64,000 bases of DNA, taken from an uncultured Polyangiaceae bacterium. Lineage in GTDB: Bacteria > Myxococcota_A > Polyangia > Polyangiales > Polyangiaceae. Location of the stretch: contig CAZFES010000001.1 of assembly GCA_964517335.1 (NCBI GenBank), forward strand, positions 7,127 through 71,126. The letters are read 5' to 3'. Positions within the stretch are counted from its first letter, which is position 1; every line of letters starts with the position of its first letter. Positions 23,684 to 30,241 of the stretch are shown in pieces. The notes below the pieces were generated by a model. That model was not told the DNA's origin, did no database searches, and was given only the letters and a program-made list of their open reading frames with translations. The position numbers and the translations under genes are program-made.

Positions 23684-25060
23684 CTACGCGAGCGGCAGGG
23701 TGAGCGCCACGCACAGGCCACCCCCTTCGCGGCAGCGCGCTTCGATGGTGCCGTCGTGCGCCGCGACGATCCGCCGGCACAGCGCCAGGCCCAGGCCGAC
23801 GCCGCCGGTGCCGCGCTCGCGGCTCCGGTCGCTGCGGAAGAACGGCTCGAACAGCATCGGCAGATCGTCGGGATCGACGCCGATGCCGCGGTCGCTCACG
23901 CTCACCGCGACGCAACCGTCGTCGGCGCGGAGCGCGACCTCGAGCTCGATGGGGCCGCCGTCGGCATACTTGACGGCGTTGTCGAGCAGGTTGTCGAGCA
24001 CGCGCCGCACCAGCTTCGAATCCACGTCCACCGGCGGCAGATCGGGCTCTATCCGCACCACCAGGCGGTCGCCGTCGTGCAAGCGGACGAATCGCTGCTC
24101 GGCTTCGCCGACGATGTCCTCCATCGACGTCGGCGCGCGCTGCAACGGCAGCGTGCCGTCGGTGTTGGCCGTGAGGTCGAGACGCGCGGTGAGCAGCACT
24201 TGCTCGACGAGCTGTTCGAGCTCGGCGAGATCGCCGCCGATGCCTCGCAGGCGCTCGCGGGTGGCGCCGGGGTCGTCCTCGTCCTCCGCGAGCTCGAGCG
24301 CGATGCGAATGCGCGCCAGCGGCGTGCGCAGCTCGTGGGACACGTTGGCGAGCAGCTCCTTTTCGTTGTTGACCATGCGCTCGAGGCGCGCCGCCATCTC
24401 GTCGAAGGCGCGCGCGAGCACGCCGAGCTCGTCGCGCCGCATGGCATCGACGCCGCTGCGCGCCGCCAGATCGCCCTCGCCGAGCGCGCGGGCCGCGCGG
24501 GTGATCCGCTCGACCGGACGCGCGATGCCGCGCGCCATCGACAGCGACACCAGCGCGAGCACCAGCAGCACCACCGCCGGGATGATGAGCCAGGCCCAGG
24601 CGCTGCCCCACTGCCACTGGTAGGCGCCCACCACATAGGCGCGGCCGTTGTCGAGCGGCACCGCGAAGCGCTGGCGCCGGCCGTAGCCCCGCATGTACGC
24701 CTTCTCCGGGACCGCCTCGAGCGGCGCGACCTCTCCCCCGTAGTCGGCGAGGCGCTCGCCGGCGGCGTTGTAGACGGCCACGTCGACCTCGAAGATGGCC
24801 GCCAGGCGCTCGACCTTGGCGTCGAGGGCAGCCGGATCGTCGAGCAGCCCCGACAGCTCCTGATCGAGGTACCGCGCCAGCCGCTGGTGGATCATCGTGA
24901 CCGGCGCCGGCATGCCGCTCCACAGCAGCTTGTTGGCGATGCCGACGCCCGCAGCGACGGCCACCAGCAGGATGATGCCGTGCAGATAGACGCGCCAGAA
25001 CACGCGCCGGCCGTGACGGTGGCGACCGCGCCGCTCTCGGCAGCGACGGCCGCGATGCAT
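23684..25060 (-). CDS. Sensor histidine kinase (2 TM, HAMP, HisKA, HATPase_c)
   Basis: Start MHRGRRCRE (ATG 25060) shares 1 nt with the response-regulator stop (TGATG). H-box NVSHELRTPLARI. N, G1 and G2 boxes: DNLLDNAVKY, DRGIGV, GTGGVGLGLA. Confidence 0.85.
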   Translation of the reverse strand: MHRGRRCRERRGRHRHGRRVFWRVYLHGIILLVAVAAGVGIANKLLWSGMPAPVTMIHQRLARYLDQELSGLLDDPAALDAKVERLAAIFEVDVAVYNAAGERLADYGGEVAPLEAVPEKAYMRGYGRRQRFAVPLDNGRAYVVGAYQWQWGSAWAWLIIPAVVLLVLALVSLSMARGIARPVERITRAARALGEGDLAARSGVDAMRRDELGVLARAFDEMAARLERMVNNEKELLANVSHELRTPLARIRIALELAEDEDDPGATRERLRGIGGDLAELEQLVEQVLLTARLDLTANTDGTLPLQRAPTSMEDIVGEAEQRFVRLHDGDRLVVRIEPDLPPVDVDSKLVRRVLDNLLDNAVKYADGGPIELEVALRADDGCVAVSVSDRGIGVDPDDLPMLFEPFFRSDRSRERGTGGVGLGLALCRRIVAAHDGTIEARCREGGGLCVALTLPLA

Positions 25061-25764
25061 CAGCCGCCCTCCAGCGCGTACTGATAGCCCACCCCGCGCA
25101 CCGTCTTGATGCGCTTCGGTTTGCGCGAGTCGTCGCCCAGCTTCTGGCGCAGCCGCGAGATGTGCACGTCCACCGAGCGGTCGAACGCCTCTTCGGCGTT
25201 CCCGCGCGCCAGCTCCATCAGCTGCTCGCGGCTGAGCACCCGCCCGGCGCGCTCGACGAGCGCATACAACAACGAGAACTCGTAGCTCGTGAGCGCCAGC
25301 TCCTCGTCGCGCAGGATCGCCGTGCGCGCGCCCGGATCGAGCGTGAGATCGCCGACGGTGAGCGTCCGCACCGAGGGGCCCACCTGGCCGCGGGCACGCC
25401 GCACCAGCGCGCGCAGTCGCGCCAGCAGCTCGCGCGGCGAGAACGGCTTGGCGAGGTAGTCGTCGGCGCCGATCTCGAGGCCGAGCACGCGGTCGGCTTC
25501 CTCCCCGCGCGCGGTGATCATGATGATCGGCACGTCGGACTGGTCGCGCAGGCGCTGGCACAAACTGATGCCGTCGATGCCGGGGAGCATCACGTCGAGC
25601 AGCACGCAATCGAAGCGATGCCGTCGCGCCTCCGCCAGACCGTCGTCGCCCCGCGCCGCCACCGTCACGACGCAGCCGTGCCGCTCGAGGTACTCGCGGG
25701 TCAGCGACGCCAGGCGCGCGTCGTCTTCCACCAGCAAGACCTGAACCATCGGCTCGGCGGTCAT
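25060..25764 (-). CDS. OmpR/PhoB-family response regulator
   Basis: Receiver domain (VLLVEDD...LLDVMLPGIDG...ITARG...DDYLAKPF) followed by a winged helix (LTSYEFSLLYAL...IKTVRGVGYQY). Start is 25764 or 25749. Confidence 0.85.
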   Translation of the reverse strand: MTAEPMVQVLLVEDDARLASLTREYLERHGCVVTVAARGDDGLAEARRHRFDCVLLDVMLPGIDGISLCQRLRDQSDVPIIMITARGEEADRVLGLEIGADDYLAKPFSPRELLARLRALVRRARGQVGPSVRTLTVGDLTLDPGARTAILRDEELALTSYEFSLLYALVERAGRVLSREQLMELARGNAEEAFDRSVDVHISRLRQKLGDDSRKPKRIKTVRGVGYQYALEGG

Positions 25765-25883
25765 GCCCTGTAGTCTTCCATGCCGGAGGTCGTTCCGGGC
25801 GTCGATTCGTGGCCTCGATGAGGGCAGCGGCGGCATGCGCTCCCTACTCTGCGTCGCCGCCCTGGTGCGCGTGTGTCGCGATC

Positions 25884-25900: not shown

Positions 25901-27019
25901 CTACGCGGCCGGCCGCGCGCCGACGTAGCGCGCCGCGGGGCGGATCAGCCGCCCGGTGCGGCGCTGTTCGGCGATGTGGGCGCACCAACCGGCCACGCGC
26001 CCCACCGCAAAGGTGGCGGTGAACATGCTGCGCGGCACCCCGAGCGCTTCGAGCAGCACCGCCGTGTAGAACTCGACGTTGGCGCGAATGGGGCGATTCG
26101 GCTTGCGCGCCGCCAGCTGGCGTTCGGCCTCGCGCTCGACAGCGCGCGCCAGCGCCACGCGACCGCTCGCGGGATCGAGCGTGCGCACGGCCGCCTCGAG
26201 CAGCTCGGCGCGCGGATCCCGCGCGCGGTAGACGCGGTGGCCCATGCCCATGATGCGCTCGCCCGCCGCGAGCGCCTGCGCGATCCAACCCGCGGCCGCG
26301 CCGGGATTGCCGATGGCGTCGAGCATGTCGAGCACCGGCCCGGGCGCGCCGCCGTGCAGCCGGCCCTTCAGCGCGCCGATGCCCGCCACCACCGCCGACA
26401 CGGTGTCGGACTCGGTCGAGGCGACGACCCTGGCCGCGAAGGTCGACGCGTTCATGCCGTGCTCGCACACCGTCGCCAGATAGGTGTCCATGGCGCGCGC
26501 CTCGACGCGCCGCGGGATACTGCCGCGCAGCATGCGTAGGTAGTCGCTGGCATGGCTGCGCCGCGGGTGAGGCTCGAGCGGCGGCTGGCCCGCCGCGCGA
26601 CGCGCCCAGGCGGCCGCGAACACGGCCGTCGCGCCGGTCAGGCTGACGGCATCCCAGGGGACGTCGGCGATCCCTTCGCTGGCGCTGTCGAGCGCGACGT
26701 GCGCGAGCGCCGCGCGCAGCCCATCCATCGCGTCATCGGCGTCGAGGGCGCTGCCGAGCTCGCCCATGAGCGCCCAGGCGCGGCGGCGCGCCAGGCCCAG
26801 GGCGGCCGACACGCGCGCCACCCGGACCCGCCCTTCGGCGCCGGACGGCAGCACGCCGTCCCACAACAGACAGCAGGCGCTGTCGAAGCCGAGCGCCGCC
26901 ACCTGTTCCACCGGGTGGCCGCCGATAAGCAGGCGGCCGTGGACGCCATCCACTTCGCTGAGACGGGTGTCCGCCACCACGATGCCCTCGAGACCGCTGT
27001 TGCTCATGCGCTGCAACAT
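25901..27019 (-). CDS. Citrate synthase-family protein (short, about 372 aa, CitA-like)
   Basis: Motifs: GLEGIVVADTRLS, LKGRLHGGAPG (first catalytic His context), MGMGHRVYRARDPR (second His), RPIRANVEFYTAV (Glu where canonical enzymes have NVDFY), GRVAGWCAHIAEQ. Confidence 0.8.
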   Translation of the reverse strand: MLQRMSNSGLEGIVVADTRLSEVDGVHGRLLIGGHPVEQVAALGFDSACCLLWDGVLPSGAEGRVRVARVSAALGLARRRAWALMGELGSALDADDAMDGLRAALAHVALDSASEGIADVPWDAVSLTGATAVFAAAWARRAAGQPPLEPHPRRSHASDYLRMLRGSIPRRVEARAMDTYLATVCEHGMNASTFAARVVASTESDTVSAVVAGIGALKGRLHGGAPGPVLDMLDAIGNPGAAAGWIAQALAAGERIMGMGHRVYRARDPRAELLEAAVRTLDPASGRVALARAVEREAERQLAARKPNRPIRANVEFYTAVLLEALGVPRSMFTATFAVGRVAGWCAHIAEQRRTGRLIRPAARYVGARPAA

Positions 27020-27036
27020 GGGCCCGCCGTGCTATG

Positions 27037-27062
27037 TTGATCAACATTGATTCATGAATCAA
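27037..27062. promoter_or_regulatory. Palindromic operator candidate: TTGATCAA-ca-TTGATTCATGAATCAA
   Basis: A perfect 16-bp palindrome TTGATTCATGAATCAA (27047..27062) is centred on the ATG of the HTH-fused gene. It is preceded by the 8-bp palindrome TTGATCAA (27037..27044). Both lie in the 34-bp divergent intergenic region and are strongly AT-rich for this DNA. Confidence 0.55.
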
Positions 27063-28307
27063 CGTCAGGCAATCGACGATCCAACCATCGCCGCCGAATG
27101 GCTGTCGGCAGGCGAGGCGGCGCGCGTCCTCGGGGTGAAGCGCGAGACGCTGTACGCCTATGCCAGCCGCGGAAAGATCGCCACGCAGCCCGGCGAGGGA
27201 CGCCGCCAGCGCTATCGCCGGGCCGACGTCGTCCGGCTGGTGGCGTTGCGGGACGCGCGCGCCGGGCACGGCGCAGTGGCGGCCGGCGCGCTGCGCTGGG
27301 GCGAGCCGGTGCTCGACTCGGCGGTCACCGAGATCCGCCCCGAGGGCCACCGCTACCGCGGACAGCCGGCGCTCGCGCTGGCGCAGACGCATTCCTTCGA
27401 GGCGGTGGCGGAGCTGTTGTGGGGCGGCGACGGGCGCCGCCCGTGGCCCGCGGCCAGCCTGCCGCTCGCGCCGGGGCGGCTGGCGTCGCTCCTGTCGCAC
27501 GATGCGCGCCCTGTGGATGCCATCGCGATGGGGCTGCCGGCGATGGCGACCTGGGATCCCATGCGCCTGCACGCGGGCGAGGACGCCACGCTGCGCGTCG
27601 CGCGCCTGCTCATCCGGCGCATGATCGCCTGCGCCGCCCTGCCCTGCGGCGCCGAGCTGGCGAAGCAGTCGCTGCGCGAACCGGGCGCCGCGCGCGCGCT
27701 GGTCGTCGCGCTCGGCGCCCAGCCGACGCCCGACGCCGCAGCGGCGGTGGAGCGCGCGCTCATCCTGTGCGCCGATCACGAGCTCAACCCGTCGAGCTTC
27801 GCCGCGCGGGTTGCGGCCTCCGCCGGATCCGACGTGTATGCCTGCGTCGGCGCGGCGCTCGCGACGCTGGTGGGTCCGCACCACGGTGGCATGCCCGAGC
27901 GCGTCGAAGCGCTGCTCGCGGAGATCGGACGCCCGGAGCGCGCCGCCCGCGTCGTCGCCGAACGCCTCCGCCGCGGCGACGAGGTGCCGGGCTTCGGCCA
28001 CACCCTCTACCCTCGGGGCGACCCGCGTACAGCGCCCTTGCTCGAGGCGGCCCGCCGCCTGGCGCCGCGCAGCCGCGTCGTGCGCAGCGTCGATGCGCTC
28101 GTGGATGCCATGCAGCTCGCGGGCGCGCCGCGGCCCACGCTCGACGTGGGGCTGGTGGCGCTGTCGGGCGCGCTGCAGCTCGGGCCCGGCGCCCCGGTGA
28201 CGGTCTTCGCCATCGGCCGCACCGCCGGCTGGATCGCGCACGTGCTCGAGCAGCGCCAGGCGGGGTTCTTGCTTCGTCCGCGTGCGCGCTACGTCGGCGT
28301 CGTGTGA
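27054..28307 (+). CDS. Helix-turn-helix (MerR/excisionase-type) domain fused to a citrate synthase-family domain
   Basis: N-terminus: WLSAGEAARVLGVKRETLYAYASRGKI...YRRADVVRL, an HTH_17-like motif. The citrate-synthase fold follows: LILCADHELNPSSFAARV, LVGPHHGGMPE, VPGFGHTLYPRGDPR, PTLDVGLVAL, GRTAGWIAHVLEQ. Confidence 0.8.
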   Translation: MNQRQAIDDPTIAAEWLSAGEAARVLGVKRETLYAYASRGKIATQPGEGRRQRYRRADVVRLVALRDARAGHGAVAAGALRWGEPVLDSAVTEIRPEGHRYRGQPALALAQTHSFEAVAELLWGGDGRRPWPAASLPLAPGRLASLLSHDARPVDAIAMGLPAMATWDPMRLHAGEDATLRVARLLIRRMIACAALPCGAELAKQSLREPGAARALVVALGAQPTPDAAAAVERALILCADHELNPSSFAARVAASAGSDVYACVGAALATLVGPHHGGMPERVEALLAEIGRPERAARVVAERLRRGDEVPGFGHTLYPRGDPRTAPLLEAARRLAPRSRVVRSVDALVDAMQLAGAPRPTLDVGLVALSGALQLGPGAPVTVFAIGRTAGWIAHVLEQRQAGFLLRPRARYVGVV

Positions 28308-28319
28308 TGATGAGGTGCC

Positions 28320-29258
28320 ATGGCCTACCGGGATGAGCTCACCGCGCTGCGCGCCGAGCTCGACAAAGCGCGCGACGTCATCGACGAGCTCGAGGCGCGC
28401 GTCACGCCCCGGCTGGTGGAGGAGCTGCCGCGCGAGGTGGCGGAGTCGCTCACGTGGATCCGCCAGCAGGCGCTCGTCGCACCCGACACGGCCGACGGGC
28501 TGCGCAAGCACCTCGACATGTTCCGCGAGTATCGCGCCCTCCTCGACGACGTGATCGCACGCGCGCCGGAGCTCGAGCAGTCGCTGAACCACCTGCCGCG
28601 CGCCTTCCCCGAGCGCGTCAAACCCTCCCATCGCTATTTCTTTCCCGACATCTACGATCCGCACATCAGCCACGCGCGCAGCCACATCCACCGCTACTTG
28701 CAACAGCGCGATCCGGAGGTGAGGCTGCGCGACGCGCGCGCCCGATACTTCGACGCACACGCCGACCCGTATCTGGTCGACGCAATGTTCCACGTCGAAA
28801 GAGCGCCCCTTCGGCTCATCGTCATCGCCGTCGGGCCGCCCGATCAGATGCTGCGCCAGCTCTGCTACAGCCTGTTCATGCGCACCCGGCGCAGCATGCC
28901 GACGATGAAGCTCACCAATCAAAGCGCGCTCGACGCGCTGGCGGTGTTGTTCCGGCTACGGCGCGACACCAAGATCGGCGACGCGCGCGTGGACGACGCC
29001 ATCGTCATCGACGCCGATGCCGAAGCGGCCGAGCGCGTCCTCACCAACGACGTCCGCGAAGCGTTGATCCGCTACCATCGCTCCTGCCCGCGGGCCACGC
29101 TGCTCATCGAAGATGGCCTGGCGCGCGCCGAATGGATCGCCACGGTGGTCGCGCCCGAGGAGGACGTGACGCCGGCCATCGATCTGTTGCTGGCGGTCCG
29201 CCGCGTTCCGCCGCTGTCGCTGCTCAAAAAGAGAGCGACGCGTCGAGCGTCGGGCTGA
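28320..29258 (+). CDS. Hypothetical protein (N-terminal coiled coil), probably co-transcribed with the HTH-citrate-synthase-like gene
   Basis: GAGG lies 4-5 nt upstream of the ATG, which is 12 nt after the upstream stop. Third codon positions are G/C-rich. No domain recognised. Confidence 0.55.
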   Translation: MAYRDELTALRAELDKARDVIDELEARVTPRLVEELPREVAESLTWIRQQALVAPDTADGLRKHLDMFREYRALLDDVIARAPELEQSLNHLPRAFPERVKPSHRYFFPDIYDPHISHARSHIHRYLQQRDPEVRLRDARARYFDAHADPYLVDAMFHVERAPLRLIVIAVGPPDQMLRQLCYSLFMRTRRSMPTMKLTNQSALDALAVLFRLRRDTKIGDARVDDAIVIDADAEAAERVLTNDVREALIRYHRSCPRATLLIEDGLARAEWIATVVAPEEDVTPAIDLLLAVRRVPPLSLLKKRATRRASG

Positions 29259-29641: not shown

Positions 29642-30241
29642 ATGAAGCGATTCGCCCCCGCCGCCGCGCGCAACCGCGATCCCATCCTCGAGGTGCTGCG
29701 GCGCGTGCTGCCTTCCGAGGGCAAGGTGCTCGAGATCGCGAGCGGCACCGGCGAGCACGCCATGCACTTCGCCGCCGCGCTGCCCGCGCTGACCTGGCAA
29801 CCGAGCGACATCAGCGCCGAGGCCATCGACAGCATCGAGGCGCATCGCGCCGACGGCCCGCGCAACGTCCTGCCGGCGGTGGTGCTCGACGTGCGCGACG
29901 CCGACTGGGGCGAGGCGGCGCGGGATCTGTCCGCGATGCTGTGCATCAACATGATCCACATCGCGCCCTGGAGCTGTGGCGAAGCGTTGCTGCGGGGCGC
30001 TGGCATTCACCTGCCCGCCGGCGCGCCGCTCTTGCTCTATGGACCGTACCGCTTTCACGGCCGCTTCACCGCGCCGAGCAACGAGACCTTCGACGCCTCG
30101 TTGCGGCATCGCGATCCGTCGTGGGGCGTGCGCGACGTCGACGACATCACCCGCGCCGCCGAGCCGCACGGCCTCGCGCACGAGGAGACGGTGGCCATGC
30201 CCGCCAACAACCACGTGCTGGTGTTTCGCCGCGTTCAGTGA
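29642..30241 (+). CDS. DUF938-family SAM-dependent methyltransferase-like protein
   Basis: AARNRDPILEVLRRVLPSEGKVLEIASGTGEHAMHFAAALPALTWQPSD matches the DUF938 N-terminal signature as I recall it, including the Rossmann LEIASGTG motif. Confidence 0.7.
   Translation: MKRFAPAAARNRDPILEVLRRVLPSEGKVLEIASGTGEHAMHFAAALPALTWQPSDISAEAIDSIEAHRADGPRNVLPAVVLDVRDADWGEAARDLSAMLCINMIHIAPWSCGEALLRGAGIHLPAGAPLLLYGPYRFHGRFTAPSNETFDASLRHRDPSWGVRDVDDITRAAEPHGLAHEETVAMPANNHVLVFRRVQ

Follow-up and report, generated by a model that had tools for sequence, protein, structure and literature searches.

We describe a divergent pair of genes for proteins with a citrate synthase fold in a 64,000-nucleotide stretch of DNA (hereafter the window, meaning the whole stretch that was analyzed) from an uncultured Polyangiaceae bacterium (assembly GCA_964517335.1, contig CAZFES010000001.1, positions 7,127 to 71,126). 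The plus strand gene (27054-28307) encodes a 417-amino acid (aa) fusion of a helix-turn-helix (HTH) to a citrate synthase body, and the minus strand gene (25901-27019) encodes a 372-aa stand-alone minor citrate synthase of the CitA type (PRK12350). We conclude that the fusion is probably a local one-component regulator that uses its citrate synthase fold as a metabolite sensor and controls citA and itself. The evidence that we regard as decisive for this putative role is a conserved operator, predicted at 27036-27065, that overlaps the ATG of the fusion gene. The two start codons are separated by 34 bp (27020-27053), and the original prediction, which had recognized two divergent citrate synthase-fold genes this close together, is borne out by the open reading frame (ORF) table and by the matches of both proteins to PF00285.

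A conserved operator predicted at the fusion gene

Relatives of the window are found in Myxococcota, and a scan for related loci, with each species represented by one genome, returned 317 confirmed loci, 80 of which were kept for comparison. From these, 77 loci entered an expectation-maximization (EM) motif search, 76 were used to test a position weight matrix (PWM), and 77 fusions together with 36 CitA partner proteins were tabulated residue by residue. The EM search, applied to the 260 nucleotides preceding the HTH, converged on GATCAAT-c-TTGAT-N6/7-AATCAAT. The core that is shared across phyla is ATCAA-N2-TTGAT-N6/7-ATCAA, and the complete site spans approximately 26-30 bp. In the window, the predicted operator is GTTGATCAACATTGATTCATGAATCAACGT, which includes the palindrome TTGATCAA (27037-27044) and the 16-bp palindrome TTGATTCATGAATCAA (27047-27062), the latter centered on the ATG of the fusion gene at 27054.

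The position of this site is highly consistent between loci. In 73 of 76, the best PWM match of the entire locus of approximately 9 kb falls between -250 and +40 relative to the start of the fusion gene, and the median score is 23.1 at the operator, while the next-best sites elsewhere have a median of 6.7 and reach 12.7 at most. Loci that carry the operator belong to Myxococcota, Alpha- and Betaproteobacteria, Binatota, Bradymonadia and others, and the site is found whatever the divergent neighbor of the fusion gene, including at loci with no citA in that place. Where citA and the fusion do form a divergent pair (35 loci), the operator is intergenic, with a median distance of 61 nucleotides from the start of the conserved CitA body, and of 22 nucleotides to the HTH that follows. 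Within its own 7.87-Mb assembly, the window site has a score of 27.0, as against 17.4 for the runner-up and 15.3 for the best site in shuffled sequence, and a strict pattern of three half-sites that tolerates variation in spacing occurs only once. Because both the strict pattern and the top PWM site are unique in the genome, the regulon appears to be local.

Myxobacterial fusion genes share a feature that touches the annotation of their first codons. The start codon, either ATG or GTG, is located at the center of the palindrome or immediately before the operator. The apparent conservation of the first residues of the fusion (MNQR.. or ..VDQRGF(D/V)NQP..) corresponds to operator DNA read as codons (27054-27083 in the window, and likewise in L005, L011, L013, L015, L017, L019 and L027). 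Since the start codon sits inside or just before the operator, the comparison suggests that fusion mRNAs are leaderless or have a very short leader, and that the starts assigned by gene callers are unreliable here.

Covariation between the recognition helix and the operator

The predicted recognition helix, TLYAYASRG, comprises residues 32-40 of the fusion, and four of its residues (L33, Y34, S38 and R39) are invariant across phyla. Position 35 varies, and does so together with the operator. Threonine is found there in 10 of 10 loci with TCGAT/ATCGA half-sites, and alanine, valine or serine in 42 of 43 loci with TTGAT half-sites; the lone TTGAT locus with Thr35 (L080) has a mixed site in which TTGAT is combined with ATCGA. 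In a tree built from the citrate synthase domain alone, Thr35 needs at least four changes, in Archangium, in a pair formed by Bradymonadia and 'Rickettsiales', in a betaproteobacterial clade and in L032. Coupling of a change from Ala35 to Thr with one from TTGAT to TCGAT, seen in at least 3-4 independent lineages, is what would be expected if the recognition helix reads the bases directly. This covariation is not statistical proof, because the lineages with Thr35 are few. Taken together, an operator that is shared across phyla and a recognition helix that covaries with it are consistent with what would be expected of a one-component regulator with an enzyme-derived sensor.

Domain organization and active site of the fusion

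The N-terminus of the plus strand protein had been predicted to be an HTH of the MerR/excisionase type, and this identification holds. Residues 16-62 (27099-27239) match HTH_17 (PF12728) at 40 bits (cut-off 27) and the protein also matches MerR_1 (PF13411) at 25.4 bits (cut-off 21.6), although PF00376, at 19.7 bits, falls under its cut-off of 28.2. The solved structures that are nearest in sequence to the first 80 residues are SoxR (2zhg, E 7.6e-4), BldC (6amk/6ama) and MerR (5crl). The AlphaFold2 monomer model of the fusion has a predicted local distance difference test score (pLDDT) of 90.8 and a predicted template modeling score of 0.80. It places a MerR-superfamily winged HTH, consisting of helices 19-26 and 30-38 and strands 44-46 and 52-55, at pLDDT above 90, followed by a long helix from 56 to 79.

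The linker that connects the HTH to the body deserves separate mention. Within residues 71-85 (27264-27308), G71, H72, V75, A76, A77, W82 and G83 are strongly conserved and, despite this conservation, residues 72-85 have a pLDDT below 50 in the monomer model. Order in the linker may depend on dimerization, on contact with DNA or on insertion into the active-site cleft.

The remainder of the protein, residues 82-410 (27297-28283), is the putative sensor body. It matches PF00285 at 211 bits over profile positions 3-357 (cut-off 27), whereas its score against NF009005 is 156.3 bits, under the cut-off of 332. Foldseek recognizes a complete citrate/2-methylcitrate synthase fold in the model, with template modeling (TM) scores of 0.72-0.82 normalized to the target, and the nearest structures are PrpC and small citrate synthases. 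Both pairs of catalytic histidine contexts that had been noted, LHGGA/GHRVY and HHGGM/GHTLY, are present in the two proteins of the window. The motif LDVGL of the fusion had been regarded as an atypical context at the position of the catalytic aspartate, a view that the alignment to Thermus citrate synthase (1iom) does not sustain. P-T-L-D-V-G of the fusion lies over P-N-V-D-F-Y, and since Asp364 thereby aligns with the catalytic Asp312, the fusion retains the catalytic acid and only its neighbors differ. The triad is therefore intact, and consists of His277 (27882-27884), His316 (27999-28001) and Asp364 (28143-28145).

Among the 77 fusions, 63 have the complete His/His/Asp triad, the window protein included. 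The residues that bind oxaloacetate and citrate are conserved even more strictly: Arg325, Arg389, Arg408 and His242 show no substitution in any of 76 fusions, even where both catalytic histidines have been lost. Four residues beyond the second catalytic histidine (His2+4), at a position that we take to be that of pig Arg324, a ligand of the coenzyme A (CoA) phosphate, the fusion has Pro320. Proline occupies this position in 66 of 77 fusions, and the basic residue is thereby lost.

These observations bear on a rival explanation, according to which the fusion is a bifunctional trigger enzyme that still makes citrate or 2-methylcitrate and whose DNA binding is gated by the catalytic cycle (opening and closing with oxaloacetate and acyl-CoA), with catalysis being essential. 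The presence of His277, His316, Asp364 and all of the oxaloacetate-binding arginines in the window protein and in 63 of 77 relatives is in keeping with such an enzyme, as is a complete fold that lies closest to the structures of PrpC and citrate synthase. However, approximately 14 of the 77 members lack at least one residue of the triad (LLE and QHT types) and nevertheless retain the HTH, the operator and the binding arginines, which indicates that catalysis is dispensable for the function common to the family; moreover, proline stands in place of the CoA phosphate-binding lysine or arginine in 66 of 77. We therefore consider a trigger enzyme rather unlikely. A related proposal, to which we give similarly little credence, is that of a flux sensor, in which turnover by an active citrate synthase would set the occupancy of the operator, read the entry of carbon into the tricarboxylic acid (TCA) cycle and switch a back-up citrate synthase, with a translationally coupled downstream gene (ORF3, below) as an added partner in this myxobacterial lineage.

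In a betaproteobacterial sub-clade (L026, L029, L042, L076, L021, L031 and L080), both catalytic histidines are gone and the acid is replaced by Glu or Ala (L/L/E type). Members of this sub-clade retain the carboxylate-binding arginines, the HTH and an operator of the TCGAT type, and adjoin SDR/TRAP or TctC genes. By their sequences they look like true pseudoenzyme sensors.

The divergent gene encodes a probable minor citrate synthase

The stand-alone protein matches PF00285 at 328 bits over profile positions 1-357 (cut-off 27) and NF009005 (PRK12350) at 369.9 bits, above the cut-off of 332. Its best solved relatives are Bacillus subtilis CitA (2c6x, E 1e-70) and Mycobacterium tuberculosis CitA. 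Aligned with the Thermus reference triad of H219, H258 and D312, its catalytic residues are His222 (26354-26356), His261 (26237-26239) and Glu316 (26072-26074), the glutamate variant that is seen in the solved CitA enzymes. The motif NVEFY, in which this glutamate lies, had been regarded as an atypical active site, but glutamate proves to be the norm of the clade: it occupies the position of the catalytic acid in 36 of 36 partner CitA proteins from related loci, and in both solved members, with NVEFY in B. subtilis CitA (2c6x) and NVEFW in M. tuberculosis CitA (8gmf/6wgy). The position that contacts the CoA phosphate is Arg265, and is Arg or Lys in 36 of 36 partners. These comparisons make it most likely that the stand-alone protein is a true enzyme, a minor citrate synthase.

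The original prediction had also raised the question of a housekeeping gltA elsewhere in the genome. Such a gene exists. A canonical type II GltA is encoded on another contig (G000:C374), with scores of 647 bits against NF004126 (cut-off 505) and 560 bits against TIGR01798 (cut-off 485). Because this canonical GltA is located elsewhere in the genome, we reject the interpretation of the divergent pair as the housekeeping enzymes. With a separate GltA, the fusion is not needed for the TCA cycle, and this counts in favor of its being a regulator.

Distribution and divergent neighbors of the fusion

In order to survey its distribution, a profile of the HTH-plus-linker region was run over sampled genomes. 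The fusion is present in 53 of 301 Myxococcota genomes (18%), representing 38 of 209 genera, and in 3 of 23 in the window's own family. Among Alphaproteobacteria it was detected in 25 of 251 genomes (10%), usually as a single copy. Some genomes nonetheless appear to hold two paralogous regulators of the family, because the Burkholderia anthina genome (G302, L066) has a second, more divergent HTH-linker copy at contig C3:1115891-1116178 (E 8e-21).

A CitA homologue (43-61% identical) is located divergently upstream of the fusion in 35 of 80 loci, in Myxococcota, several alphaproteobacterial lineages and Binatota. Elsewhere, its place is taken by other genes. A family III CoA-transferase gene is found instead of citA in Burkholderia, Trinickia, Tritonibacter and Nioella, an operon of SDR, TRAP transporter and aldehyde dehydrogenase genes in Pusillimonas and Azohydromonas, and a gene for a TctC tricarboxylate receptor in Pigmentiphaga and one other locus. 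Further divergent neighbors include LysE, a flavoprotein, a Rieske oxygenase, a cupin and a methyltransferase. Such variety is the pattern expected of local regulators, as opposed to an enzyme subunit.

The bodies of the fusions group together in a clade (support 0.56) that is separate from that of the CitA partners (0.99). Pairwise distances between fusions and between their CitA partners are correlated (r = 0.86), with the fusion evolving approximately 1.6 times faster, which fits co-inheritance of the two genes and a more relaxed putative sensor. The same correlation, together with the presence of a dimeric-type citrate synthase fold in both proteins, could be taken to mean that the fusion and the neighboring CitA assemble into a heterodimer whose activity or regulation is changed, the HTH being secondary. 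However, simple co-inheritance also predicts correlated distances, and many loci, among them those of Burkholderia and Pusillimonas, have the fusion and its operator but no citA next to them, making a heteromeric enzyme very improbable. Finally, HTH_17 is an excisionase-type Pfam family, but we reject as next to impossible a recombination directionality factor in a mobile element, given that the match to TIGR01764 ('excise') is weak (23.4 bits, under the cut-off of 28.8), that there is no integrase among the called neighbors, that the gene pair and its site occupy stable chromosomal contexts across phyla, and that GC content, approximately 70% in the window, is flat over the region.

A model for regulation of the pair

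The idea that the plus strand gene encodes an enzyme-fold transcription factor or metabolite-sensing regulator was part of the original prediction, and is now well supported by the cross-phylum operator and by the covariation of helix and operator. In the model that we favor, the MerR-superfamily winged HTH would bind the operator at 27036-27065 and the complete citrate synthase fold that follows would act as the sensor. Because citrate synthases form obligate dimers, two HTHs would be expected to face the TTGAT-N6-ATCAA inverted repeat when the fusion dimerizes. A second dimer may be recruited by the further half-site upstream, ATCAA/TTGATCAA. Given that the operator covers the start codon of the fusion gene and ends 17 nucleotides from the start codon of citA, its occupancy would be expected to control both divergent genes, so that the fusion would regulate its own expression as well as that of the minor CitA. 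The most likely signal would be a di- or tricarboxylate that occupies the former oxaloacetate/citrate site, perhaps in combination with an acyl-CoA. A ligand resembling oxaloacetate or citrate is proposed because the carboxylate-binding residues are invariant and because the neighbors of the fusion at other loci include genes for carboxylate, CoA-ester and tricarboxylate-transport functions. In this model, DNA binding, the dimer geometry, the ligand, the direction of regulation (repression or activation in the manner of MerR) and any residual catalysis are what we infer for the fusion.

Several points weigh against a regulator. DNA binding is a prediction for every member of the fusion family, and the window protein, with its full His/His/Asp triad, may still be an enzyme. 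In a scan of 26850-27250, no sigma-70-like promoter could be placed and no terminator was found. With a gapless matrix derived from 20 non-myxobacterial sites, the window site drops to third place in the genome, owing to a spacing of N6 in place of N7. In addition, the value given above for the fusion clade amounts to weak support for its monophyly.

Relation to known systems

The closest functional analogue of the window pair is citA-citR of B. subtilis, in which the gene for the minor citrate synthase CitA is accompanied by a divergent gene for a LysR-type regulator. The window likewise has a CitA-clade gene (NVEFY) back to back with a putative regulator gene. However, CitR is a LysR protein, whereas the regulator proposed here joins an HTH of the MerR type to a second citrate synthase fold. 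Fusion of a DNA-binding domain to an enzyme has precedents in MocR, GabR and PdxR, in which a winged HTH is joined to a fold-type-I aminotransferase domain, and in the trigger enzymes PutA and BirA, which couple catalysis to repression. As with these proteins, the fusion would combine a DNA-binding domain with a whole enzyme fold that senses a metabolite, and would act locally on genes that are divergent or adjacent, although its HTH class and its enzyme fold both differ from theirs. MerR proteins dimerize through a C-terminal coiled coil, have small effector domains and act in promoter spacers of 19-20 bp, where they activate by distorting the DNA. The fusion resembles SoxR, MerR and BldC in its N-terminal sequence, in the winged HTH followed by a long helix, and in an operator made of short inverted and direct half-sites, but differs from MerR proteins in that its effector part is a 330-residue enzyme fold.

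Our literature searches found no paper on an HTH-citrate synthase regulator, nor any in which a citrate synthase fold serves for sensing. On the sequence evidence, the fusions most likely constitute a widespread family of transcription regulators built on the citrate synthase fold, none of which we found described. Two published gene pairs may be relevant. In Caulobacter crescentus, the adjacent citrate synthase paralogues CitB and CitC (CCNA_03757/03758) exist in addition to a GltA-like CitA with the housekeeping role (Berge et al. 2020, eLife, PMC7083601), and CitB complements an Escherichia coli gltA mutant whereas CitC does not (PMC7083601). This split in complementation would fit a pair of enzyme and regulator such as that proposed for the window, although CitC, the closest candidate with experimental data, is no more than a possible member of the fusion family: the paper mentions no HTH for CitC (PMC7083601), and there was no Caulobacter entry among the best 120 matches of a profile search with alphaproteobacterial members of the family. 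In Streptomyces coelicolor, SCO5831/SCO5832 (citA3/citA4) are divergent 'putative citrate synthases' that share an intergenic region and are treated as enzymes (PMC12323332). The window pair has the same arrangement of divergent citrate synthase genes around a shared intergenic region.

Thousands of database entries that belong to the fusion family are named 'citrate synthase' or 'citrate/2-methylcitrate synthase', and these names probably inflate the counts of TCA cycle enzymes in metabolic reconstructions. If the proposed function is correct, a widespread family of regulators senses by means of a whole Krebs cycle enzyme fold, with a nearly invariant operator and a visible specificity code (Ala35 or Thr35 against T or C in the half-site), and would be a candidate scaffold for building biosensors of acids that resemble oxaloacetate or citrate. 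A regulatory function could also explain why a citrate synthase paralogue fails to complement gltA.

ORF3 and neighboring genes

Downstream of the fusion, starting 12 nucleotides past its stop codon, is ORF3 (28320-29258, plus strand), which encodes a protein of 312 aa with no known domain. The original prediction had described it as a coiled-coil orphan. The reading frame, its length and the 12-nucleotide gap are as predicted, but the protein is not an orphan and its predicted helical part is short. No match to Pfam or NCBIfam was obtained, and a word-based search returned only two relatives; a profile made from four members, on the other hand, retrieved 357 cluster representatives at E<=0.001 and 144 at E<=1e-10, mostly of 290-320 aa. 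In the AlphaFold2 model (pLDDT 66.8) only the first approximately 80 residues are helical, at low confidence, and no meaningful fold match emerged, the best being TtfA (6t84; TM 0.33/0.53, root-mean-square deviation 7.7).

An ORF3 homologue is located directly 3' of the fusion gene in four contexts, one of which is the window. In L092 the fusion is 87% identical to that of the window. In L087 the fusion is 68% and ORF3 41% identical, with a gap of 8 nucleotides. In L089-91 the fusion is only 35% identical, the two genes overlap by 14 nucleotides, and the divergent neighbor is a methyltransferase gene and not citA. We considered ORF3 as a universal third component and rejected this, because a homologue is absent from the other 80 related loci and because the distant homologues do not lie beside a fusion gene, as illustrated by two more distant members of the family that have none adjoining. 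ORF3 is probably co-transcribed with the fusion, and on its distribution we treat it as a lineage-restricted companion drawn from an uncharacterized family of approximately 300-aa proteins.

On the other side of the pair, 64 nucleotides beyond the citA stop codon and on the same minus strand, genes for an OmpR-type response regulator (25060-25836) and a histidine kinase together occupy 23684-25836, and could be co-transcribed with citA. In L087, the closest relative, citA is followed by a vWA gene, and so the two-component neighbor is not kept there. In all four contexts in which the fusion and ORF3 adjoin, a DUF938 methyltransferase-like gene is found 0.4-4.7 kb downstream of ORF3 (29642-30241, plus strand, in the window), which may reflect conserved local synteny or a functional link.

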